Source: Rhodothermales bacterium (lineage in GTDB: Bacteria; Bacteroidota; Rhodothermia; Rhodothermales; VXPQ01). From it: a DNA stretch of 64,000 nt. A program made the position numbers and the translations under genes. Numbering within the stretch: the first letter of the stretch is position 1; each line of letters starts with the position of its first letter. The notes under the pieces are model-generated. The model was not told the origin of the DNA and did no database searches. It worked only from the letters and a program-made list of their open reading frames with translations. Location: assembly GCA_022825385.1 (NCBI GenBank), contig JAJDWX010000037.1, positions 3,748-67,747 of the forward strand, read 5' to 3'. This document shows positions 3,246-45,307 of this stretch, piece after piece.

Positions 3246-4604
3246 TTACGGCTGCGCGTTGGCCTGCGCCGCCGCTGCGTTTTTCGTCAGATATGCTTCG
3301 CCTTCTTGCGCGATGGCTGCGCCGTTTCGGTTGACGATCCCGTGCTTTACGCCCACGCGGGTGAATTTTTCAAGAATAAAATCCAGTTCGTCGTTCGAGT
3401 GCGTGGCCATGAACGAGGTGCGCATAAGCGACTGGCCCGGCGGGACGGCGGGCGGAGCCACCGCATTGGCGAAGACGCCTTCTTCGAGCAGATCGTGCCA
3501 GAACCTGAAGCAGGTCAGCATGTCGCCGATGACGACCGGAATGACGGCGGACTGGCTTGTCCAGATGTTGAACCCGGAGTTCCGGAAGCCGTTGCGCATG
3601 TACTCCGAAATGTCCCAGAGTCGTTCGAGGCGTTCGGGTTCTTCCTCAAGGATGTCCAGGCATTTAAGCACCGTGGCCACGCTGGGCGGGGGCATGGATG
3701 CGCTGAACATATGCGTGGCGCTGCGATGGCGAATAAACTCGACGATGTCCCGCGTCGCTACGCAGAACCCTCCAAGCGAAGCGAAACTCTTCGAAAACGT
3801 GCCCGTGGTTAGCGGTACGCGCTCGCTGAGCCCGAAATGCGCCGCCGAACCGCGTCCGCCCGGACCAATGACGCCGCAGGCATGCGCGTCGTCCAGGAGC
3901 AGCGCCGCCCCGAATTCTTCGGCGATCTCGACCAGTTCCGGCACTTTCGCGATGACGCCGCTCATGGAGAACACGCCGTCCGTAACGATCAGCTTCCCTG
4001 CTTGCGGATGCATCTGGCAGGTTTTGGCCAGCGATTTTCGCAAGTGATCCGTATCGTTGTGTCGAAAACGGATCGTTTCTCCCATGCTGGCGCGCGTCCC
4101 CGCCGTAATGGAGGCATGGTTGTCCTTGTCGGAAAAGATAAAATCTCCCTTCCCCGCAAGCGCCTGAATGACGCCCTCGTTCGCCATATAGCCTGTCGAG
4201 AACACTACGCAAGCAGGGGCTTGCATGAACCGGGCAAGCCGTTCTTCCAGCTGGATATGCAGGTCGAGCGTACCGTTCAGGAATCGGCTGCCGGTGCAGC
4301 CGGTGCCATACTGCTTGATGGCGTTGGCGGCGGCTTCCTGGACCCGGGGGTCGGAGGTGAGCCCGAGGTAATTGTTGGAGCCGGCCATAATGACTTCCCG
4401 CCCGTTCAGGATGGCGCGGGTTCCTTCGTTCCGCTCGATCATGCGGAAATACGGGTACAGGCCGGCTTGTTTGGCCTGGCTGTAATCCGTCGATTCGTCA
4501 AAGAACCGGTGGCATTTTTCGAACAGCGTGGGCTCCGCCACTGCACAGGCATCCGTAGCCGCACCGTCATGGCGCTCTGATCGGGAATCAAGGGGCGTCA
4601 TCAT
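3246..4604 (-). CDS. alpha-oxoamine synthase family PLP enzyme (serine palmitoyltransferase / 8-amino-7-oxononanoate synthase-like)
   Basis: NNYLGL, GTGCTGSRFLNG and the PLP-lysine motif GTFSKSFASLGG. The start was set at the internal MMTPLD; the ORF is open up to 4706. Confidence 0.85.
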   Translation of the reverse strand: MMTPLDSRSERHDGAATDACAVAEPTLFEKCHRFFDESTDYSQAKQAGLYPYFRMIERNEGTRAILNGREVIMAGSNNYLGLTSDPRVQEAAANAIKQYGTGCTGSRFLNGTLDLHIQLEERLARFMQAPACVVFSTGYMANEGVIQALAGKGDFIFSDKDNHASITAGTRASMGETIRFRHNDTDHLRKSLAKTCQMHPQAGKLIVTDGVFSMSGVIAKVPELVEIAEEFGAALLLDDAHACGVIGPGGRGSAAHFGLSERVPLTTGTFSKSFASLGGFCVATRDIVEFIRHRSATHMFSASMPPPSVATVLKCLDILEEEPERLERLWDISEYMRNGFRNSGFNIWTSQSAVIPVVIGDMLTCFRFWHDLLEEGVFANAVAPPAVPPGQSLMRTSFMATHSNDELDFILEKFTRVGVKHGIVNRNGAAIAQEGEAYLTKNAAAAQANAQP

Positions 4605-12655: not shown

Positions 12656-13858
12656 ATGTCCTCTCCCCATTCCGCCGCCGATTTCGCCTCGCTTCGCGCC
12701 CGCTACCGCAATCGGTACGAAAACGAATTGTTCGAAAAGGTGATTCCGTTCTGGGAGCGCCACGCCCCGGACTCCGCGCACGGCGGCCATTTCAATAACC
12801 TGGACCGGGACGGGGCCGTCTACGATACGACCAAGCATATGTGGATGCAGGGGCGCCTGGTATGGATGTTCAGCAAATTATACCGCGCCGTCGAGGCCCG
12901 TCCTTCCTGGCTTGCGATAGCGCGCAACGGGATGGATTTCCTGCGTAAACATGCCGCCCGACCGGACGGGAGGGTGTATTTTTCGACGACGGCGGACGGA
13001 CGCCCCGCGTATCTCCAGCGCAAGATATTCACGGAGTGCTTTTATCTTATGGCGCTTGCGGAATACGCCCGGGCCGCCGAGGAGCCGGAACTCCTTCGCG
13101 AGGCGTACGAAGGGCTTGGGCGCATGTGGGAATGGGCCTGGGACTGGACGAAGGTAGGGCGCCCGGCGTACGAGGGACAGGCTCCGTCGCAGGCGCTGGC
13201 CGTTCCTATGTTGTTGCTGAACCTGATTGAGGAGGTGGCGGGAGAAGATTTCGGGACATACCGCGCCGAGGCGGACGATTGCATCCGCCGGACGGCCTTG
13301 CACGTGCATGCCGATACGCGGTGCGTGTACGAGGCCGTGGCCCCCGACGGCAGCCGCCTGGAGGGCCCGGAAGGCCGTTTGCTTACGCCGGGCCACGCGA
13401 TCGAGGCGGGATGGTTTTTACAGCACTGGGCGCAACGCCTCGAACATGCGGACGCGCAGCGACAGGCCCTGGACATGGTGCGGTGGTCTTTCGAAAAGGG
13501 CTGGGATCAGAAGTGCGAGGGGCTGTTCTACTTTGTGGATGCGGAAGGATACGCTCCCGTTCCGCTGGAATGGTCCATGAAGTTGTGGTGGCCGCATTGC
13601 GAGGCGCTCTACGCCCATCTGCTGGATTATTTTCTGACCGGAGACGCCGCCGACCTTGCTGCGTTCGAATCCGTGCATCGCTACGCGTTCACGCGGTTCT
13701 CCGACCCCGAATACGGGGAATGGTTCGGCTACCTCGACCGGCAGGGCGTCGTAACGCATCGCTTCAAGGGCGGGCCGTACAAGGGGTGTTTCCATGTCCC
13801 GCGCGCGCTGTGGTTGTGCTTGCGCCTTTTGGACGAAAAACCCGCGTGGCTCGCCTGA
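12656..13858 (+). CDS. N-acylglucosamine 2-epimerase (AGE) family protein
   Basis: Start at MSSPHS. The sequence looks like an (alpha/alpha)6-barrel AGE (FWERHAPDSAHGGHFNNLDRDG, PGHAIEAGWF). Confidence 0.8.
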   Translation: MSSPHSAADFASLRARYRNRYENELFEKVIPFWERHAPDSAHGGHFNNLDRDGAVYDTTKHMWMQGRLVWMFSKLYRAVEARPSWLAIARNGMDFLRKHAARPDGRVYFSTTADGRPAYLQRKIFTECFYLMALAEYARAAEEPELLREAYEGLGRMWEWAWDWTKVGRPAYEGQAPSQALAVPMLLLNLIEEVAGEDFGTYRAEADDCIRRTALHVHADTRCVYEAVAPDGSRLEGPEGRLLTPGHAIEAGWFLQHWAQRLEHADAQRQALDMVRWSFEKGWDQKCEGLFYFVDAEGYAPVPLEWSMKLWWPHCEALYAHLLDYFLTGDAADLAAFESVHRYAFTRFSDPEYGEWFGYLDRQGVVTHRFKGGPYKGCFHVPRALWLCLRLLDEKPAWLA

Positions 13859-13974
13859 GATGCCCGCTTGCGCCTGGCGTTATCCGCTAATTTTAATCAG
13901 CGCTTGCCTTTCCTTGCGAAAGAACGTATCGTGAAGGCGCTTGCCCTTTCGCAGGGATTTTCCCCGATTTTTTC

Positions 13975-15582
13975 ATGAATGTTCTTTTTACCTGGCTCGA
14001 CTGGCTCTGGGTGGCGGCGTTTCTGTTGCTGATGATCGGCAGCGGCGTACTGTTTTATCGCCTCGGCAGACGCTCTCAGTCCGATTTCTTTTTGGCGGGG
14101 CGCGGGTTGCCCTGGTGGTTGCCGGCTTCTTCGGTGTACGCCACCCATACGGCCACCGATACGCCCATGTGGATCACGGGCATTATTTATCGTCACGGCC
14201 TGGCGGGCATCTGGTATACCTTCTTCTCGGCCTGGGCGGCCATCAGCGCCTTTGTTTCGACGCGCATTTTCCGCCGTTCGCTGGCGTACACGCAGGCCGA
14301 ATGGAATGTCGTACGGTTTACGGGCCTTGGCGCAGAAATGTTACGCGGCTGGATGGCCGGGTGGCAGGTGTTCATGAACATGTTCGTGCTGGGCTGGGTG
14401 GGCATTGCGATGGGGAAGGTGTGCGCGTTCCTTTTCGGTTGGCCGCTGTGGGTGGGCCTTGTGTCTTTTTCGTCCGTGTGCGCCGTCTATGTGCTGGCGG
14501 CGGGCTACTGGGGCGTCGTCATGGCCGATTTCCAGCAGGGCGTGATTGCCTTTCTGGTTATCATGATCGTGTCGATCTGGGGGATCATGACGGCGGGCGG
14601 GCCGACGGGCATTGTCGAAAAACTTACGATTCTGGGCGAGACGGATCGCCTGAATCCGTTTGCGTTCACAGGCTGGTGGACCGGAGAATTTCCCGCCGCC
14701 TGGTTCGTTACGATGATGGTGATCGCCATCCTCGGCGGGTTCGGCATGGGGACAAGTATCGACTGGTACCCCGAGGCGCAGCGCATCCAGTCCGCCCGCA
14801 CCGTGCGCGACGCCAGTTACAGCATCTGGTGGGGCACGCTCGTCGGGCTTGTGCGCAACTCGGTCTGGGCCGTGGCCATCCTGGGTTTTTTCGTGCTGTT
14901 TCCGGGCATGACGGAAACGGCCGAGTACGAGATGGGCTGGTTCCGGCTGGGCTTCGATTACCTGCCCGTGGGGATGGTGGGGTTCTTTTTCGCCGCCATT
15001 CTCGCCATCCACCTCTCGACCATTTCGTCCCATCTGAATCTGGGGGCGTTGTACGCGACCCGCGACTTGTATCAGCACTACTGGAACCCCGAGGCTTCCG
15101 AGCGGACCCTTGTTTGGGTGGGCCGCTGGTCTACGCTGATTCTGTTGCTCGGTTCGTTCGTATACGGGTTGATGATGGAGAACATTACGGAGTGGCTTAT
15201 TTTCGCGCTCTGGATCATGACGGCGGGCATCTGGTTGCCGAATATTCTTCAGGTAATATGGTGGCGATTCAATGCATGGGGGTATTTGTCGGCCTGGATC
15301 GCCAACCTTGGCTTCAGTTGGCTGGTGGTGTGGATATTGCCCGAGTTCGGCGTGATCCCGGAATTGCTTGATTACCAGCAGTTCTGGCTGCTTATGCTGC
15401 TGGGCGTCGGCGTTTTCATTCCCGTAACGCTCTTGACGAAGCCGGAGCCTATGGACCATCTCGTCAAGTACTATGTGCAGGCGCGCCCCCTCGGATGGTG
15501 GGGGCCGGTTCGCCGCGAGGCCGAGCGGCGCGGATTGATCCAGCCCGATGCCCCGCCGCGACGCGCCCTTTCGCAATCCTGA
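13975..15582 (+). CDS. sodium:solute symporter family transporter
   Basis: 535 aa with multiple TM helices; N-terminus of SSS type (SDFFLAGRGLPWW). Confidence 0.85.
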   Translation: MNVLFTWLDWLWVAAFLLLMIGSGVLFYRLGRRSQSDFFLAGRGLPWWLPASSVYATHTATDTPMWITGIIYRHGLAGIWYTFFSAWAAISAFVSTRIFRRSLAYTQAEWNVVRFTGLGAEMLRGWMAGWQVFMNMFVLGWVGIAMGKVCAFLFGWPLWVGLVSFSSVCAVYVLAAGYWGVVMADFQQGVIAFLVIMIVSIWGIMTAGGPTGIVEKLTILGETDRLNPFAFTGWWTGEFPAAWFVTMMVIAILGGFGMGTSIDWYPEAQRIQSARTVRDASYSIWWGTLVGLVRNSVWAVAILGFFVLFPGMTETAEYEMGWFRLGFDYLPVGMVGFFFAAILAIHLSTISSHLNLGALYATRDLYQHYWNPEASERTLVWVGRWSTLILLLGSFVYGLMMENITEWLIFALWIMTAGIWLPNILQVIWWRFNAWGYLSAWIANLGFSWLVVWILPEFGVIPELLDYQQFWLLMLLGVGVFIPVTLLTKPEPMDHLVKYYVQARPLGWWGPVRREAERRGLIQPDAPPRRALSQS

Positions 15583-28429: not shown

Positions 28430-28846
28430 ATGATATCTAAAGAAAAATTCGAAGGCGCCTTACGAGAACTGGCAGATGTGCTCACGTGTTATGTGAGCAC
28501 GGAGGATGGTCAGTGGACAGTCAAGGGATTTATAGATGTGTTCAAGAATGTCTATACGATTTCTTCAGATACCAAGATTGTCTCCAAGATATTGGAGATA
28601 CATCTTTTGCCAAAACTATCCGCATTTGCGGAGGAATACGGATTTGCTATCATATTAGCTGAAAAACAAAATTATTATCCTGATGTATCGTTCGTACACA
28701 AAGAAAACATATCTTTAAAATTTGCCTTGGATTTCAAAACGACATATCGAAATCTCCAAAAACCATGGCTATGTAATGGTTTCACATTGGGTTCGCACGG
28801 TGCATATTTTCGAAAAAGATCGAGTACAAAAAATATTCAATATTAA
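28430..28846 (+). pseudogene. EcoRV-family type II restriction endonuclease, C-terminally truncated
   Basis: SSDTKIVSKILEI, NYYPDVSF, FALDFKTTY and FTLGSHGAYFRKRSSTKNIQY line up with R.EcoRV SDTKVLSTIFEL, NHYPDFTL, IAIDIKTTY and FTLGGYTSFIRNNTKNIVY. The ORF stops at 138 aa, whereas EcoRV is 245 aa. Very AT-rich. Confidence 0.75.
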
Positions 28847-28868
28847 TCATTCCGAGGAATAATAAAAA

Positions 28869-29801
28869 ATGAGTGATTTTTACCGTACCATAGTGCCTCC
28901 AATAAAATGCCAGGGTATCAAAACCAGACTGGTATCATGGATTCGGTCCGTTGCTCCCTCGAGATTTACGGGAAGATGGGTAGAGCCGTTCATGGGATCA
29001 GGAGTGGTTGCCTTTAATATTTGCCCCGGCAAGGCAATTCTGGCCGATTCCAATCCTCATGTAATTAATTTTTACAAAGCCATCGCAGCGGAAAAGATCA
29101 CACCCATATCTGTTCGCTCGTTTCTCGTAAGAGAAGGTGACCAATTATTACGTTCTAACGGAGATCATTACTATGTAGTTCGTGAAAGATTTAATCAATA
29201 CGGGGATCCGTTTGACTTTCTATTTCTGAATAGATCATGTTTCAATGGATTAATGCGTTTCAATAAAAAGGGAGGTTTCAATGTTCCGTTTTGTCGTAAA
29301 CCGCATCGATTTGCGCCTGCATACATTACTAAAATATGTAATCAGGTAAAAAATATATCGAACATTATAAATCTTGGAGAATACGAATTTTATTGTCAAG
29401 ATTTTTCTACCACGATCAATAATATCAATGAAGAAGATATGATTTATTGTGACCCTCCTTATATTGCTCGTCATTCGGATTATTTCAATAATTGGGATGA
29501 AAATAATGAACGCAAACTGGCAAATTTTCTTTCCCTTGTATCATGTAAATTCATTTTATCTACATGGTATGGTAATAAATATCGAAAAAATCCCTTTATT
29601 GATGCTCTATGGTCAGAATTTTACATGCTGAAGCAAGATCATTTTTATCATGTTGGCGCCAGCGAAGAAAACAGGAATTCAATGACGGAAGCATTGATAA
29701 CCAATTTCGAGCCATTACTTTACGATGCTCCTTCAGAGATGGTTGAGCAGATGATTCTTCTTGAACCAGGGACATCGTATACCCCGAATTCCAGCATATG
29801 A
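28869..29801 (+). CDS. Dam-family N6-adenine DNA methyltransferase (M.EcoRV-like)
   Basis: PPIKCQGIKT, motif I EPFMGSGVV, motif IV DPPY, FYHVGAS. Full length (310 aa). AT-rich. Confidence 0.9.
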   Translation: MSDFYRTIVPPIKCQGIKTRLVSWIRSVAPSRFTGRWVEPFMGSGVVAFNICPGKAILADSNPHVINFYKAIAAEKITPISVRSFLVREGDQLLRSNGDHYYVVRERFNQYGDPFDFLFLNRSCFNGLMRFNKKGGFNVPFCRKPHRFAPAYITKICNQVKNISNIINLGEYEFYCQDFSTTINNINEEDMIYCDPPYIARHSDYFNNWDENNERKLANFLSLVSCKFILSTWYGNKYRKNPFIDALWSEFYMLKQDHFYHVGASEENRNSMTEALITNFEPLLYDAPSEMVEQMILLEPGTSYTPNSSI

Positions 29802-30162
29802 CCTATGCCTTGGTGCCTTGCTTGTCAAAGAGGATGGGTTGTAGTCGAGTGTACAGTCGAGAGATGCAAATTCGTGCATGCGCTCAACCCCTACCGCCCG
29901 TCGAGGAAGCGATCCAGCGCGCCCGGTTTTCTTCCCGGACGCCTGTCTGGACACTCTCCGGGACATTCTTTTAGACAAATAAAGGGACATTTCAAGTATA
30001 ATAAATCTTGATTCCCGATAAATTCGGGTTTATATTTACCCCGTACGGGCCGTTTTCGCCAGGTATCGGGCGCTTTTTTGCCTTGCTGCCGAAGCGATAC
30101 GGTTTTTGTCGACTTTTCTGCCCGACAGGGCCGCCATAGCGCATGTACCAGCATTCAATCCC

Positions 30163-31416
30163 ATGTCCAACCGCCGCGAATACGAGCGAACGCATCCCTG
30201 GATCACGTTCCGGCTGGATTTGAACCAGGCGCATCCCCATCTATGGACATTGCTTGGACAGGCCGTGACCTTTTGCAGGCAAGTGTCTCAAGCGGCCCTG
30301 CCCCCGGATATCGCAAAAACGTTCAAGACGCTATACCTCAGCAAGGGCGTTCGGGCGACGACAGCTATCGAGGGGAATACCCTGACAGAAGAACAGGTGC
30401 AGGCCCAGATCGAAGGGACGCTGGATTTGCCTTCCTCGCAGGAATATTTGCAACAGGAGATAGCGAATATTTTGCATGCTTGCGGGGTTATCGAAGCGGC
30501 TATGGACACGGATAATCCGCCCCGGTTGACCGTGGATCTGATCCGGGAATACAATGGGCACGTGCTTGAAGGATTGGGCGAGCATCTTGCCGAAGGCGTG
30601 ATTCCCGGTGAGATTCGCGCGCATTCGGTAGGCGTGGGCAGTTATCGAGCGGCGCCCCCGGAAGATTGTCGCTATCTGCTGGAACGTCTTTGCGGATGGC
30701 TGGAGGAGAAAACCGAGATCCCGTTTTTTGCGGAGGAAGACGATCAACGGGTTGCGACGGGTATTTTGCACGCCATTCTTGTCCACTTGTACATTGCCTG
30801 GATTCACCCCTTCGGCGACGGCAACGGGCGCACGGCGCGGCTCCTGGAGTTTATGGCGCAGGCTCGCGCGGGGGTTCCGTTTCCTTCGGCGCACCTGCTC
30901 AGCGACCACTACAATATGACCCGGACCCAGTACTACCGGGAACTGGACCGGTCAAGCCAGGTCTGCGATGGCGAAGGAGACGCTTTCGGATTCCTGCACT
31001 ACGCCTTGCAAGGGTTTGTAGATGGATTGCAGGCGCAATGCCAAAAAATTCAGGGGTATCAACTTGCGATAGCGTGGGAACACTTTATCTATGGCGTGTT
31101 TGCGAAGCAGAAGCGTTCCAGCGCCATGCAACGCCGGCGGGAACTGGTGCTGGAACTCGGTCGAATATCCGAACCCGTTGCCAAGGCGGAAATACCCTTC
31201 CTAACCCCGGCCTTGGCCCGCGGTTACGCCGGCAAGACACGCAAGACCCTCACCCGGGACCTGAACTGGCTGGGGCAGAAGCGGTTGATTGCGCGGGCGG
31301 GCCGGGCGTATCGCGCCAACATCGGGCTCATGTGGGCATTCGTGCCGCATTTGCAAGCAGATCGATTCGTTACCTTGCTGTCTTCCGCCCGCAGCGAGCG
31401 AGGCGAAAACGAATAA
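30163..31416 (+). CDS. Fic family protein
   Basis: Start at MSNRREY. Canonical Fic motif HPFGDGNGRTAR. Confidence 0.9.
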   Translation: MSNRREYERTHPWITFRLDLNQAHPHLWTLLGQAVTFCRQVSQAALPPDIAKTFKTLYLSKGVRATTAIEGNTLTEEQVQAQIEGTLDLPSSQEYLQQEIANILHACGVIEAAMDTDNPPRLTVDLIREYNGHVLEGLGEHLAEGVIPGEIRAHSVGVGSYRAAPPEDCRYLLERLCGWLEEKTEIPFFAEEDDQRVATGILHAILVHLYIAWIHPFGDGNGRTARLLEFMAQARAGVPFPSAHLLSDHYNMTRTQYYRELDRSSQVCDGEGDAFGFLHYALQGFVDGLQAQCQKIQGYQLAIAWEHFIYGVFAKQKRSSAMQRRRELVLELGRISEPVAKAEIPFLTPALARGYAGKTRKTLTRDLNWLGQKRLIARAGRAYRANIGLMWAFVPHLQADRFVTLLSSARSERGENE

Positions 31417-40726: not shown

Positions 40727-40860
40727 CGGCGATTTTATTTGACGCGAAACTGCAATCGGGCCTTTCGGGGACGAGGAAATTGTCTTTAAATATTTGATAT
40801 ATAAATATTTATAGGAAGTAATTTTTATTTGACGGTTATTTGATCGGATGGGGTGTTTTG
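40727..40860. repeat. 134-bp direct repeat, left copy (islet boundary)
   Basis: Matches 44989-45122: identical over the first 24 nt and the last ~41 nt, diverged in the middle. Contains repeated TTATTTGA(C/T) motifs. Confidence 0.9.
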
Positions 40861-40918
40861 TGGAAACAATCCGGCCTGGATTTATGTTATAGAACACAGA
40901 AACCGTGAAACTGTGGCT

Positions 40919-41194
40919 ATGAAAAAGAACATCACCGTATCCATAGACGAGCAGACCTACCGCTGCGCTCGCATCCGGGCGGCGGAACTGGACACATCGG
41001 TTTCCGCCCTGGTGCAGGGGTATTTGAGGAGTTTGGCGCCTGGCGGTACGGTGGATAACGGGCAGACTGTAGCATCGGGGTCCGAACGCCGCCGTCGGAT
41101 GTTGACGGAGGTCATTGAGGACATCCATGTCGCTTCGCCCGATTTCAAGGCCGCCGATAACCTGCCTCGCGAGGAGCTGCACGAGCGGGGGTAG
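40919..41194 (+). CDS. vapB: ribbon-helix-helix (CopG/VapB-like) antitoxin
   Basis: MKKNITVSIDEQTYRCARIRAAELDTSVSALVQGYL; lies upstream of a PIN gene. Confidence 0.7.
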   Translation: MKKNITVSIDEQTYRCARIRAAELDTSVSALVQGYLRSLAPGGTVDNGQTVASGSERRRRMLTEVIEDIHVASPDFKAADNLPREELHERG

Positions 41195-41256
41195 CGTTGG
41201 GGGGCGTGTGTAGTGATATTTGTTGAACGCCAGGATTGCGAATGCGAAGAGGTTTG

Positions 41257-41682
41257 ATGCGCTTTCTTGATACGAATATTCTGATCTATGCGGTCAGTCC
41301 GGCCCCTGACGAAGTCGAAAAGCAGCGTTTGGCTCAGCGGCTGTTGGAAATGGGCGATCTTGCCTTATCCGTCCAGGTACTCCAGGAGTTCTATCATCAG
41401 GTAACGCGTCCCGGCCGTCCTGGAGCGATTACCCAGGACCGTGCGCTACAATTTATCGAGCGTATCGGTCATTTCCCCGTGCAGCATATCACGCTTGACG
41501 TGTTCCGCGAAGCGGTGGCTATCAGCCGCCGTTTTCAACTGTCCTATTGGGACGCCGCGATCCTTGCGGCTGCGCGTATCCTGGGTTGCGATGCAGTGTA
41601 TACCGAAGACTTGAACGCGGGACAGGATTACGGGGGCGTTCGCGCGGTGAATCCGTTCGCGGATTCGGCGGGATTGCGGTAG
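41257..41682 (+). CDS. vapC: PIN-domain toxin VapC
   Basis: MRFLDTNILIYA, VLQEF, SYWDAAILAAA and YTED (PIN acidic residues). Alternative starts at 41236 and 41242. Confidence 0.85.
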   Translation: MRFLDTNILIYAVSPAPDEVEKQRLAQRLLEMGDLALSVQVLQEFYHQVTRPGRPGAITQDRALQFIERIGHFPVQHITLDVFREAVAISRRFQLSYWDAAILAAARILGCDAVYTEDLNAGQDYGGVRAVNPFADSAGLR

Positions 41683-41863: not shown

Positions 41864-42052
41864 ATGTCCAGGGAGACGAAGAAAAAGAAGTTTGATTGCG
41901 TCCAATACACTCGCGAAGTGCGTACGCAGCTGCAGAAGGAAACTGCACATATGATCGCGGAGGAAAGGGTGGCGTTCTATCGGAACCAGACGTACGCGAA
42001 TCCTGTACTGGCCCGGTTGGCGGCGATGTCGCCGCAACGAAAGGAGCGGTAG
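41864..42052 (+). CDS. small protein, unrecognised family (KFDCV-x-[FY]-x-RE), paralogue 1
   Basis: 62 aa: KKKKFDCVQYTREVRTQLQKETAHMIAEERVAFY. It shares a collinear motif with three other ORFs in this window. Confidence 0.55.
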   Translation: MSRETKKKKFDCVQYTREVRTQLQKETAHMIAEERVAFYRNQTYANPVLARLAAMSPQRKER

Positions 42053-42125: not shown

Positions 42126-42308
42126 ATGGCAGAGAAAGCCGAAAAGAAATTCGATTGCGTTCGGTTCATGCGCGAAGCGCGCAGGAGGATTTACGAGGAA
42201 ACAAAGCACATGAGCCACGAGGAATTGAGCGAGTATTACCGGGCGTTTCGCGAAAGCGATCCGCTGTGGAAGCGCTTGAAGGCCCGGGAGAAAGAGCAAG
42301 CGCGGTAG
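42126..42308 (+). CDS. small protein, same family, paralogue 2
   Basis: 60 aa: EKKFDCVRFMREARRRIYEETKHMSHEELSEYY. Confidence 0.55.
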   Translation: MAEKAEKKFDCVRFMREARRRIYEETKHMSHEELSEYYRAFRESDPLWKRLKAREKEQAR

Positions 42309-42334
42309 GTTTCGTTTTCTGGAGATATTCGGGT

Positions 42335-42526
42335 ATGGAAGCCGCAAGCAAATTCGACTGCGTTCAGTTCATGCGCGAGGCATGGGCCCGCATGGACGCG
42401 GAGACCGAAGGCGTGGCCGACGAGGGGCGGGCGTGGTACAAATCAAGAGAATACGCCGATTCCTGGTTGCCGAAAATGTCCGGGCGGATGCGGGGTCAGC
42501 GCGGTGCATTGAGCCAGAAACCATGA
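42335..42526 (+). CDS. small protein, same family, paralogue 3
   Basis: 63 aa starting at MEAASKFDCVQFMREAWARMDAETEGVADEGRAWY. Its stop overlaps the next ATG (ATGA). Confidence 0.55.
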   Translation: MEAASKFDCVQFMREAWARMDAETEGVADEGRAWYKSREYADSWLPKMSGRMRGQRGALSQKP

Positions 42527-42702
42527 GCGAAACGGCAATCATCTTCGAAGTCGCCGGGTCCCCGGATGGCGGATGCGAGGGGCAGGTGCTTGGCCGCGGC
42601 ATGTTTACGCAGGGCGACGATTGGGCTGACCTGAAGAAGATGGCGCGGGATTTACACGTTTTGCTATTTTTACCACTTTCAGTTTGTGCCAAGAAAAGAT
42701 GA
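42523..42702 (+). CDS. HicB-like antitoxin N-terminal domain, probably 3'-truncated
   Basis: MSETAIIFEVAGSPDGGCEGQVLGRGMFTQGDDWADLKKMARD resembles the HicB-like fold pattern (IFEV..PDGGY..ALG.GI.TQGD). The tail (LHVLLFLPLSVCAKKR) coincides with a drop in GC. Confidence 0.45.
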   Translation: MSETAIIFEVAGSPDGGCEGQVLGRGMFTQGDDWADLKKMARDLHVLLFLPLSVCAKKR

Positions 42703-42723: not shown

Positions 42724-44958
42724 ATGAAAGACGCCCAGAAACCAGACCATGTCAGTTTGACGACGCTTATCGAACGCCTTCGCGAGGGCCGCTTCGTTAT
42801 CCCGGATTTCCAGCGCGATTTTGAGTGGAAGCCATGGGATATCCGTGATCTAGTCCGGTCGATTTTTCTCGACTACTACATCGGCAGTCTGCTCCTGTGG
42901 AAGGGCAAGTCAGAGAACTTTGCCGCGCTTTCCTGCGAGGCTATTTACGGCTACCCCGATCCCGACGACGGTGATCCCGTGCACATCGTTCTGGATGGTC
43001 AGCAGCGCCTGACTGCGATGCACTATGTTTTCCTTGCGCCGGACAAGCCGCTCCCTAATCGCTCGAACCGCTTCCTCTATTTCATTCATGTTGATCGCTT
43101 CATGGAGGAGGCTTATGACGAGGCATTCATGTATGATTGGACCCAGAGAGGCGTGAATCTTCTCGCGGATCCGAGTGCGCAGTTCGAGAATCACCTGTTC
43201 CCCGTCTCGGTCGTTGGACAAGGCGGCTGGGAACTTCCGAACTGGGTCCAAGGCTACGAGAAGTACTGGCGTGACAAGAAGAAGGCCGCTCAAGCGGACG
43301 GCGACGAAGGAGCGGCACAAGAGGCGGAACGGCGTAGAAGCGATGCCGACGCTTTCGGACAGCACCTCAAGACCATTACCGAGCAATACCAAATCTCCTA
43401 CATCGAGCTAGACCGCAACCTCTATATTGACAAGGTCTGTGATATTTTCACCCAGATAAACAGCCGTGGGATTCGCCTTGATGTCTTCGATCTCGTCAAC
43501 GCGATGCTGAAACCGAAGGGCCTTCAACTCAAGCATCTATGGCGCGAGGCTGCACCGCGCCTTGATTTCGTTGATACCGAGCGGATGAATGTCTACCTGC
43601 TTCAGGTGATGTCCATCCTGCGTCAGGCCTATTGCTCGCCCAAATATCTCTATTACCTGCTTCCCGGACAAGAGAAAAAAGTACGTGAGCCGGATGGCTC
43701 GTTGCGAAGAGAAATATTGGTTCCTGATGTTTCGGAATTTGAACGGCGTTGGAATGCGGCCGTTGAGGCGGTTGAAAGTGCGATCAAGTTGCTGCGTCAT
43801 CCGCAGGAGTTCGGCGCCATTTCGTCCCAATACCTCCCGTACGTTTCGATTCTTCCTGCGTTCGCGGCGCTTCAGACAGTCCTTGGTGAACTTCCTCCAC
43901 CCCGCCAACTCGATGCCCAGCGCAAGTTGCGTCATTGGTACTGGGCCAGCGTATTCACCAATCGCTACTCCGGTTCGGTAGAGTCTACCAGTGCCCGCGA
44001 CTACCTTGACGTAAAGGCTTGGTTCGACGATGATGCTGCGGTGCCGGGCCTGATTGCGGAATTCCGGGCGCGCTTCAAGAATTTGGACCTACGCCGGGAA
44101 ACCAAGCGCGGCACTTCTGTCTACAACGGTATCTTCAATCTACTCGTGCTGCACGGCGCACGTGACTGGATGACCGGCAATGTTTCCCAGTACGACGATC
44201 TTGATGATCACCACATTGTTCCTAAAAATTGGGGGAAGGAGAACGGCCTCCACGGGAACATTGATACGATCCTAAACCGTACTCCGCTCAGTGCTGACAC
44301 CAATCGCAACGTCATTCGCGAGCGCCTGCCGAATGAGTACCTGCCCGAGTTGATGTCGGCCAGTGGCGAATCCAGCGTTCGGGCCACCTTGGAATCACAT
44401 TTCATTTCTCCTGCGGCAATTGAGATATTGTTAGCCGACCCATTCACGAAGAATGACTTTGAGTCCTTTCTTGCGGAGCGGCAACGTACGCTCCAGAATG
44501 CAATTGAAGACTTGCTGGTAAAGGAACGGCTAGACCTCCCACCCCAATTGCGTGAACTGGATGCAAATATCGAGAAGGTCGAGCTTGTTTTGCGTTGCGC
44601 CATTGACGAGACACTGGACGGAGATCCCTCTCAGCTCCCGCACCATGTACGGCAAAAGATTGGGGAGCGATTGCAGATTGCTGCGAGGAAGAATGCCGCA
44701 CTCGACGGCGAGCACTACGAGTCGCTCGGGGGCAAACTTGAGTATGCCGACCTGCGTGAGTTGCAGGACACGATCACAAATAAGGGACTTTGGCATCGCT
44801 TTGAAGGGCGCTTCGCAAATAAAGAGGTGCTTGCAAGGCGATTCGGACAGCTCGCAGATATTCGGAACGGTATCCGCCACAGCCGCAGCGTGGACGAGAT
44901 CACGCGGAAGGAAGGCGAAGCGGCAATCCTGTGGTTTGAGCAGGTCACCGGAACATGA
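42724..44958 (+). CDS. DUF262-DUF1524 (GmrSD-like) nuclease fused to a C-terminal Swt1-like HEPN domain
   Basis: N-terminus has IPDFQRDFEWK and VLDGQQRLTA (DUF262). The middle has DDHHIVPKNWG ... ILNRTPLSADTNRN (DUF1524 His-Me finger). The C-terminus has LADIRNGIRHSRSV (Rx4H) followed by GEAAILWF. Confidence 0.85.
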   Translation: MKDAQKPDHVSLTTLIERLREGRFVIPDFQRDFEWKPWDIRDLVRSIFLDYYIGSLLLWKGKSENFAALSCEAIYGYPDPDDGDPVHIVLDGQQRLTAMHYVFLAPDKPLPNRSNRFLYFIHVDRFMEEAYDEAFMYDWTQRGVNLLADPSAQFENHLFPVSVVGQGGWELPNWVQGYEKYWRDKKKAAQADGDEGAAQEAERRRSDADAFGQHLKTITEQYQISYIELDRNLYIDKVCDIFTQINSRGIRLDVFDLVNAMLKPKGLQLKHLWREAAPRLDFVDTERMNVYLLQVMSILRQAYCSPKYLYYLLPGQEKKVREPDGSLRREILVPDVSEFERRWNAAVEAVESAIKLLRHPQEFGAISSQYLPYVSILPAFAALQTVLGELPPPRQLDAQRKLRHWYWASVFTNRYSGSVESTSARDYLDVKAWFDDDAAVPGLIAEFRARFKNLDLRRETKRGTSVYNGIFNLLVLHGARDWMTGNVSQYDDLDDHHIVPKNWGKENGLHGNIDTILNRTPLSADTNRNVIRERLPNEYLPELMSASGESSVRATLESHFISPAAIEILLADPFTKNDFESFLAERQRTLQNAIEDLLVKERLDLPPQLRELDANIEKVELVLRCAIDETLDGDPSQLPHHVRQKIGERLQIAARKNAALDGEHYESLGGKLEYADLRELQDTITNKGLWHRFEGRFANKEVLARRFGQLADIRNGIRHSRSVDEITRKEGEAAILWFEQVTGT

Positions 44959-44988: not shown

Positions 44989-45122
44989 CGGCGATTTTAT
45001 TTGACGCGAAACGGCCGTCGGGCCTTTCGGGGATGGGAAAATTATTCTTAAACATCTGATATATAAATACTTAAATGAAGAAATTTTTATTTGACGGTTA
45101 TTTGATCGGATGGGGTGTTTTG
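44989..45122. repeat. 134-bp direct repeat, right copy (islet boundary)
   Basis: See 40727-40860. Confidence 0.9.
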
Positions 45123-45307
45123 GGGTCATAGCAAGGGTGTTCGCAGCACATGGCTATCGCCAGTCCGGGCACGAAAGCCGCAACAAATCCGATTGCAATC
45201 GGTTCATGCTTGAGGCCCGGGGCCGTATCGATGCGGCGACTGCGGGCATGACCGACGAGGAGCGGTTGGCGTGGTACAGTTCCAGGAAATACACCGAAGT
45301 CCCGTGA
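45110..45307 (+). CDS. small protein, same KFDCV-like family, paralogue 4 (diverged)
   Basis: NKSDCNRFMLEARGRIDAATAGMTDEERLAWY is collinear with paralogues 1-3. The start is uncertain (ATG 45110 lies inside the repeat; GTG 45137 is an alternative). Its stop overlaps the GTG of the next gene. Confidence 0.45.
   Translation: MGCFGVIARVFAAHGYRQSGHESRNKSDCNRFMLEARGRIDAATAGMTDEERLAWYSSRKYTEVP

Follow-up and report, generated by a model that had tools for sequence, protein, structure and literature searches.

The 64,000-nucleotide stretch analyzed here (the window: positions 3,748 to 67,747 of contig JAJDWX010000037.1, assembly GCA_022825385.1, from a Rhodothermales bacterium) carries on its forward strand, at 42724..44958, an intact open reading frame (ORF) with an ATG start and 744 codons before the stop. 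It encodes a GmrSD-type protein with three modules: an N-terminal DUF262 domain, a His-Me finger that follows a helical linker, and an added C-terminal helical domain with features of the HEPN superfamily (Table 1). This architecture, proposed by a first-pass annotation made from the sequence alone, is real, with support for each of its modules. All the motifs which that annotation had quoted were located in the translation of the ORF: FQRDFEW at residues 29-35, DGQQR at 91-95, DHHIVP at 495-500, NRTPLSADTNRN at 518-529, LADIRNGIRHSRSV at 710-723, and GEAAILWF at 731-738. Their chance occurrence is excluded, because the GmrSD_N domain is matched with an E-value of 2.9e-30 and because more than 100 full-length homologues, 74-89% identical, have N and C termini that coincide with those of the window protein.

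Table 1. Features of the gene and of the surrounding candidate islet (positions in the window; residues of the 744-amino-acid protein)
Feature	Position	Strand	Evidence or remark
Gene for GmrSD-type DUF262 / helical linker / His-Me finger / HEPN-like protein, complete	42724..44958	+	ORF and translation, full-length homologues, AlphaFold2 model
DUF262 / GmrSD_N (ParB-like NTPase/sensor), residues 14-262, including FQRDFEW	42763..43509	+	Pfam PF03235, BrxU sequence and profile matches
DGQQR motif, residues 91-95	42994..43008	+	translation; conserved in homologues
Alpha-helical linker, residues 263-480	43510..44163	+	helices in AlphaFold2 model; collinear with BrxU
His-Me (HNH, beta-beta-alpha-metal) finger, residues 481-560; DDHHIVP 494-500, N518, N527	44164..44403	+	profile, model, conservation
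C-terminal helices of GmrSD core, residues 561-599, equivalent to BrxU end	44404..44520	+	BrxU alignment
Added helical domain, residues 600-744, HEPN-like, nearest Swt1/Abi2 clade	44521..44955	+	AlphaFold2 model, sub-threshold Pfam matches
E620-x3-R624, core helix 1, second invariant polar pair	44581..44595	+	invariant alignment columns
RNGIRH, residues 714-719, Rx4H HEPN-type motif, followed by S720 and R721	44863..44880	+	conservation, position in model
137-nt direct repeat, left copy	40727..40863	.	repeat family D2, 88% identity, spacing 4262
137-nt direct repeat, right copy, 31 nt past gene stop	44989..45125	.	repeat family D2
DUF6364-like antitoxin	40919-41194		E 1.5e-5, just under cut-off; islet left end
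PIN-domain toxin, after antitoxin	41236-41682		E 5e-15; islet left end
Four paralogous ~60-amino-acid ORFs	41864-42052, 42126-42308, ~42331-42526, 45110-45307		share 'KFDCVxFMREA...'
Short ORF directly upstream of gene, MSETAIIFEVAGSPDGGCEGQVLGRGMFTQGDDWADLKKMARD...	42524-42702

At the level of the whole protein, a Pfam scan gave a single match, to GmrSD_N/DUF262, and a scan of the 744 residues against NCBIfam gave none; middle and C-terminal segments searched in isolation against Pfam returned only noise-level matches to AHH and BAR_2. Among the PADLOC models, PDC-M55C, HEC-05 (equivalent to BrxU) and HEC-06 were matched, SspE and NsnA weakly (NsnA at the N terminus, E 3.4e-8), and the small model PDC-M34B matched residues 640-725 (E 3.9e-5). 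The full-length AlphaFold2 model has a mean predicted local distance difference test score (pLDDT) of 87.6. Searched with Foldseek, its only significant matches in the PDB were three BrxU chains (E 1.2e-12 to 3.6e-10), the best of which, 7p9k (E 1.2e-12), aligns over 663 columns (~650-660 across chains) and covers the whole of BrxU. We consider it highly probable that the gene product is a single-polypeptide defense nuclease of the GmrSD/BrxU kind.

The first two modules resemble BrxU both in sequence and in structure. Residues 14-262 match Pfam PF03235 (GmrSD_N) with 106 bits against a cut-off of 33.2. BrxU 7p9k is also the only related solved chain by sequence (E 2.9e-8, or 8e-25 with a family profile). 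We counted conservation over 78 intact, species-level full-length copies. The DGQQR motif, described in the literature as the nucleotide-hydrolysis motif of GmrSD-like proteins, is kept in 77-78 of them. The linker is collinear with BrxU, both in the Foldseek alignment and through a weak second stretch of the hidden Markov model match. For the His-Me finger, a profile built on 36 sequences of the family hits the HNH domain of SpCas9 taken by itself (6o56, E 0.0032), with DDHHIVP placed opposite DVDHIVP, and NRTPL...TNR, which includes N518 and N527, opposite DSIDNKVLTRSDKNR of Cas9. In the AlphaFold2 model this region forms a strand (493-497), a second strand (519-523) and a helix (524-531), and residues H496, H497, N518 and N527 are invariant in 78/78 homologues. 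The finger is thus supported by the Cas9 HNH profile and by the BrxU fold, whereas the Pfam model for DUF1524, the label earlier given to it, gave no match (see below).

The C-terminal domain is what sets the protein apart. The BrxU C terminus (to residue 579 of 587) aligns up to profile position 595, and therefore the added module comprises ~145 amino acids, starting near residue 596-600, and not the ~190 first proposed. A phmmer search with residues 553-744 against 1.84 billion representatives yielded 517 proteins at E<=0.001, and RNxxxH is found in nearly all of the 150 representatives that include the region. When 40 sequences of diverse architectures were aligned, the sole invariant columns were E620, R624, R714, N715, H719 and R721, a result reproduced in further alignments; the same six residues are invariant in 78/78 full-length homologues. 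The first-pass annotation had put forward variation of the RNxxxH residues among homologues as evidence against a HEPN domain, and R714, N715 and H719 proved constant across both sets. Besides DUF262-HNH proteins, the domain is fused to a BrxL ATPase, a protein kinase, a reverse transcriptase, Mrr, a helicase, Schlafen/AlbA_2, a cyclase and HARE-HTH; such promiscuous fusions are as expected for a defense effector or sensor module. The divergent relatives P0240, P0243 and P0244 have a degenerate HNH motif (QEFNIVP, QSHYIVP) with N527 replaced and retain RNxxxH. This speaks for a C-terminal domain able to act as an effector by itself, and in some clades it may be the sole effector. We also considered whether short proteins limited to the C-terminal domain (~193-335 amino acids; ~193-205 at survey loci L085-L088) were independent HEPN genes. 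This was rejected for both cases checked, because the short ORFs lie just 3' of a complete or fragmentary DUF262 ORF in the same orientation. The checked proteins are split or frameshifted full-length genes, possibly through long-read assembly errors.

Several lines of evidence relate the C-terminal domain to the HEPN superfamily. In a Pfam scan of the domain alone, using 41 diverse copies, the most frequent families all belonged to the HEPN clan: HEPN_Swt1 (10/41 copies), HEPN_SAV2148 (8/41), RiboL-PSP-HEPN (7/41), Abi_2 (5/41), and HEPN_Apea and DUF3644 (2/41 each). HEPN_Swt1 (PF18731) was both the most frequent and the best-scoring. An AlphaFold2 model of residues 596-744 (pLDDT 94.5, predicted template modeling score 0.87) has core helices at 607-630, 640-656, 700-718 and 725-741 (12-35, 45-61, 105-123 and 130-147 in domain numbering), with three short insert helices at 668-697 (domain 73-102) between core helices 2 and 3. 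RNGIRH (domain 119-124) spans the transition from core helix 3 into the loop that leads to helix 4. As described by Anantharaman et al. (2013, PMC3710099), the HEPN fold has a core of four helices running up and down, an insert that separates the second helix from the third, and the motif where helix 3 ends or the 3-4 loop begins; our model agrees with this topology, as judged by secondary-structure order.

The family is abundant and widespread. Scanning a single genome for each GTDB species revealed 394 loci that encode a relative, and the family comprises hundreds of protein clusters. Of these loci, the best 80 of 394 are described here; nearly all of them are full length (residues 1 to ~741), with 65-85% identity. 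Overall, the family is 65-89% identical over at least 14 bacterial phyla. The hosts include members of Gemmatimonadota, Gamma- and Alphaproteobacteria, Chloroflexota, Acidobacteriota, Actinomycetota, Desulfobacterota, Planctomycetota, Bacteroidota and Rhodothermota, Verrucomicrobiota, Cyanobacteriota, Spirochaetota, Latescibacterota and Acetothermia. Two copies are assigned to archaea, in Methanoculleus sp. MH98A (L057) and in a Methanobacteriota metagenome-assembled genome (L082), both on 9-10 kb contigs for which contamination or mis-binning is possible; in each the gene lies in an hsdM-gene-hsdS cassette, with ~68-69% identity for the gene and ~79% for HsdM to the bacterial copies. Phage records gave just two distant DUF262-HNH matches (residues 10-600), in which the HEPN part is absent. 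Across the 78 full-length copies, mean pairwise identity is alike in every module (60-72%). Given this similarity and the near-invariance of the signatures, all three modules look functional. Strong purifying selection acts on each of the three sets of signature residues, while the family as a whole moves freely between phyla.

The genomic setting of the homologues was examined by clustering the ORFs in the flanks of 84 loci and by tblastn on 81 nonredundant loci. One neighbor cluster dominates (32/84 loci). By Pfam, the neighbors are HsdM upstream and HsdS downstream, followed by HsdR, sometimes with a Schlafen/AlbA_2-HATPase_c_4 gene in between. With tblastn, an HsdM homologue was detected in the flanks of 29/81 loci, HsdS in 20/81 and HsdR in 20/81. 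About a third of the copies lie between hsdM and hsdS of Type I restriction-modification (R-M) operons; at least 18 loci show an overlap between the stop of the upstream ORF and the start of the gene, and several have a following ORF that starts 3-9 nt past the stop of the gene. The family is often translationally coupled within R-M operons, in the order hsdM - gene - hsdS - hsdR. HsdM is 79-83% identical between hosts of different phyla, indicating that the whole cassette moves as a unit. Other settings include a position between a SNF2 or ResIII helicase and a large N6_N4 methylase, one adjoining a DUF4011-MTES_1575 giant helicase, and one 3' of a BrxR regulator, where the island also carries CBASS and a Type II R-M system. 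The closest relative (89% identity) has a Type ISP enzyme and a Schlafen gene on its downstream side. Many copies are solo, with no linked methylase, and the window copy is one of them. As a separate observation, the Schlafen/AlbA_2 + HATPase_c_4 gene is a recurrent second passenger of these cassettes, co-embedded downstream of hsdS in L008, L017, L019, L049 and L082; in the locus of the closest relative (L090), it adjoins the Type ISP enzyme, at 13164-14259.

The window copy is solo and was acquired horizontally; it occupies a small islet of low GC, next to a PIN toxin-antitoxin pair. Horizontal acquisition is supported by the GC content of the gene, 54.5% against 60.5% for the window. Two direct repeats bound a 4.26-kb stretch (GC 54.8% versus 60.5% for the window) that looks like an inserted islet; their 38-nt exact core occurs twice in the window against an expectation of 0, and each copy holds two 'TTTATTTGACG' elements. 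Three of the four paralogous small ORFs, which had no Pfam match, lie upstream of the gene and the degenerate fourth lies just past the right repeat. The short ORF directly upstream of the gene presumably resembles the N-terminal part of a HicB-type antitoxin, continued by unrelated sequence, and may be a truncated remnant. Outside the repeats we found a DUF1761 gene and an SRPBCC gene. The islet contains no integrase, and metagenome scans revealed neither an empty site nor a related copy of the 137-nt repeat. We looked for an hsd remnant beside the gene, using HsdM, HsdS and HsdR from related loci as tblastn queries, and found nothing in the window. Elsewhere in the window, an AT-rich patch at 28430-31416 (44% GC versus ~60%) looks by eye like a second acquired defense patch: it holds a 138-amino-acid ORF followed by a 310-amino-acid ORF with DPPY that resembles a Dam-type N6-adenine methylase, probably a Type II R-M pair, and then a protein with the Fic motif HPFGDGNGRTAR.

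We suggest the following mechanism. By analogy with the characterized relatives BrxU, SspE, HEC-06 and TgvAB, the DUF262 domain would sense DNA modification, with binding and hydrolysis of nucleoside triphosphate, and would thereby permit the HNH finger to cleave foreign DNA that is probably modified. A GmrSD-type homodimer would pair two HEPN domains into a composite Rx4-6H active site; HEPN RNases require two such motifs brought together (see also PMC3710099). The same sensing event, or failure of a neighboring R-M system, could then trigger RNA cleavage as a second, growth-arresting layer, analogous to that of PrrC, a HEPN anticodon nuclease whose gene lies within a Type Ic R-M locus. We assign a probability of about 0.55 to this overall reading, with a DUF262 sensor, an HNH DNase and a HEPN RNase layer in one chain. 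The balance tips slightly toward the C-terminal domain being an active RNase. The coupling of restriction to abortive RNA cleavage, which the first-pass annotation had raised, is a tentative proposal with the odds clearly against it. Rather doubtful, too, is a more specific version, in which one DUF262 sensor would license two effectors and the copies between hsdM and hsdS would guard the R-M complex in the manner of PrrC, with HEPN RNA cleavage switched on once the R-M system is overcome by anti-restriction proteins of phages or by DNA hypermodification. Such a guard could account for the 65-89% identity that the cassette maintains while moving between at least 14 bacterial phyla and apparently archaea.

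A number of results weigh against this three-layer reading. The RNase activity, the dimerization, the preference for modified DNA and the coupling of the modules are all steps that we infer. The window copy has no R-M partner, and a PrrC-like guard is inapplicable there in that form. The Pfam GmrSD_C/DUF1524 model (PF07510) gave no match to the whole protein at E<=1, nor to residues 367-600 at E<=10, and was matched by only 1/40 relatives (E 0.0065). For the C-terminal domain, no HEPN model in Pfam reaches its gathering score in the window protein or in any tested relative: against the 27.5 bits of HEPN_Swt1, the window protein scores 13.5 (E 0.089) and the best relative 24.8 (E 2.8e-5). Foldseek with the model of the domain gave no significant match in the PDB (best E 0.16; all TM-scores <0.4), where the only HEPN entry noticed was Sulfolobus 2q00_B (E 2.8), and nothing significant in BFVD; a family profile of the domain against PDB sequences found no HEPN chain and nothing relevant. 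These searches are also what speaks for an unrelated helical bundle in which RNxxxH arose by convergence. We hold this to be improbable, since six HEPN-clan Pfam families recur in the 41 relatives, with essentially no other coherent family, and since these matches align RNxxxH with the motif region of the models; moreover, the helix order, the insert between helices 2 and 3 and the position of the motif fit the published HEPN fold, and the HEPN survey itself placed a DUF262+HNH fusion in the Swt1-like family (PMC3710099). The Swt1-like HEPN fold of the first-pass annotation is thereby borne out in part: the bundle is confident, its helix order is HEPN-like and HEPN_Swt1 is the top Pfam family, but no Foldseek neighbor is significant and the scores always stay below the gathering threshold. 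In our judgment the domain is likely to be a genuine HEPN, nearest to the Swt1/Abi2 clade, with the fold level unproven and the scores outside formal PF18731 membership.

Granting a HEPN origin, the domain might still be noncatalytic. As a HEPN-derived or HEPN-like module for nucleic-acid binding, sensing or oligomerization, it would regulate an ordinary Type IV restriction enzyme, with no RNA cleavage or abortive infection. The HEPN domain of eukaryotic Swt1 has been inferred to be an inactive RNA-binding sensor (PMC3710099), and BrxU, HEC-06 and TgvAB are reported to defend through DUF262 and HNH alone. A sub-threshold HEPN assignment with no structural neighbor is in keeping with such a module as well. 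Nevertheless, inactive HEPN domains usually lose their catalytic-type residues, whereas R714, N715, H719, E620, R624 and R721 are invariant here both in the 78 homologues and in the 40 diverse fusions, and RNxxxH is kept even in the clades with a degenerate HNH motif. The fusion was, in addition, scored as 'active' by Anantharaman et al. (PMC3710099), and we regard a noncatalytic domain as unlikely, if a serious alternative. Considerably less probable is that the protein serves mainly the selfish upkeep of mobile R-M cassettes and islets, with the HEPN RNase as an addiction or post-segregational toxin that kills cells losing the methylase. The tight embedding between hsdM and hsdS, with stop/start overlap in many loci, would suit this role, as would whole-cassette transfer (HsdM 79-83% identical across phyla) and the toxin-antitoxin genes beside the window copy; against it, many copies, the window copy among them, have no linked methylase, and the characterized GmrSD relatives in R-M or Hma loci are direct anti-phage restriction enzymes.

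Contrary to what the first-pass annotation had implied, the fusion itself is not new. Table 1 of Anantharaman et al. (2013, PMC3710099), a computational listing, includes a Swt1-like HEPN with 'ParB (DUF262) with HNH(DUF2081) (VNG7073), active', which has the same three-module architecture as the window protein, and the same survey found HEPN domains repeatedly fused to R-M endonuclease domains and embedded in R-M operons. With tblastn against plasmids we found a protein of Halobacterium pNRC100 that is collinear with residues 335-741 (24% identity, E 4e-19) and carries the motifs HHIFP, ELNR and RNALAH; its only Pfam match is HEPN_Swt1, with 19.9 bits, again under the 27.5 cut-off. This homologue is plausibly the published VNG7073 example. 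No experimental work on a GmrSD-HEPN protein was found in the open-access and bioRxiv literature, in line with the first-pass annotation, which knew of no characterized example. The window gene is an ordinary member of a known, uncharacterized and widespread family, and the HEPN reading of its C-terminal tail is probably right. As a discovery this is modest, because the architecture was cataloged in 2013 and fusions of HEPN with R-M nucleases are a documented theme. The family is nonetheless abundant, unusually conserved and without an experimental record, and many of its genes are now labeled 'DUF262 domain-containing protein'. Should the HEPN tail prove to be an active RNase, the family would offer a natural case of one sensor that, within a single chain, drives DNA restriction as well as growth arrest at the RNA level, and it would join PrrC as the second type of HEPN nuclease built into Type I R-M operons.

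Among known systems, BrxU is the top sequence and structure match of the window protein, with ~17% identity in the structural alignment. BrxU, GmrSD, HEC-06 and TgvB share with it a single chain that contains DUF262 with DGQQR, a helical linker and a His-Me finger. BrxU (587 amino acids) lacks the extra ~145-amino-acid C-terminal domain, and the window protein, unlike the definition of the GmrSD family, does not match the Pfam DUF1524 model. Its homologues lie in loci of the R-M, BREX or Hma type, settings already reported for the GmrSD family: GmrSD homologues have been described inside Type I R-M loci (Machnicka et al. 2015; TgvAB of Vibrio cholerae) and inside Hma systems (Payne et al. preprint). 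HEPN was not reported among the extra domains of GmrSD proteins by Machnicka et al. (2015).

Two further comparisons concern the putative RNase layer. The anticodon nucleases PrrC and RloC are HEPN-type RNases of Type I R-M loci; the family copies between hsdM and hsdS likewise place a HEPN-type module in such loci. PrrC is placed in, and kept latent by, EcoprrI, a Type Ic R-M locus; it has been unified with the HEPN superfamily (PMC3710099). The N-domain of PrrC is an ABC-ATPase, whereas the window protein has DUF262 and HNH in its place, and the window copy, unlike PrrC, has no R-M neighbor. In Menshen (NsnABC) and ptuXYZ, a DUF262 sensor is paired with a predicted RNase effector, as in the window protein. 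There, the RNase has a BECR/RelE fold and resides on a separate protein, and DUF1524 is absent; in the window protein, the RNase-like module is instead a HEPN-like fusion in cis, and an HNH finger is still present.

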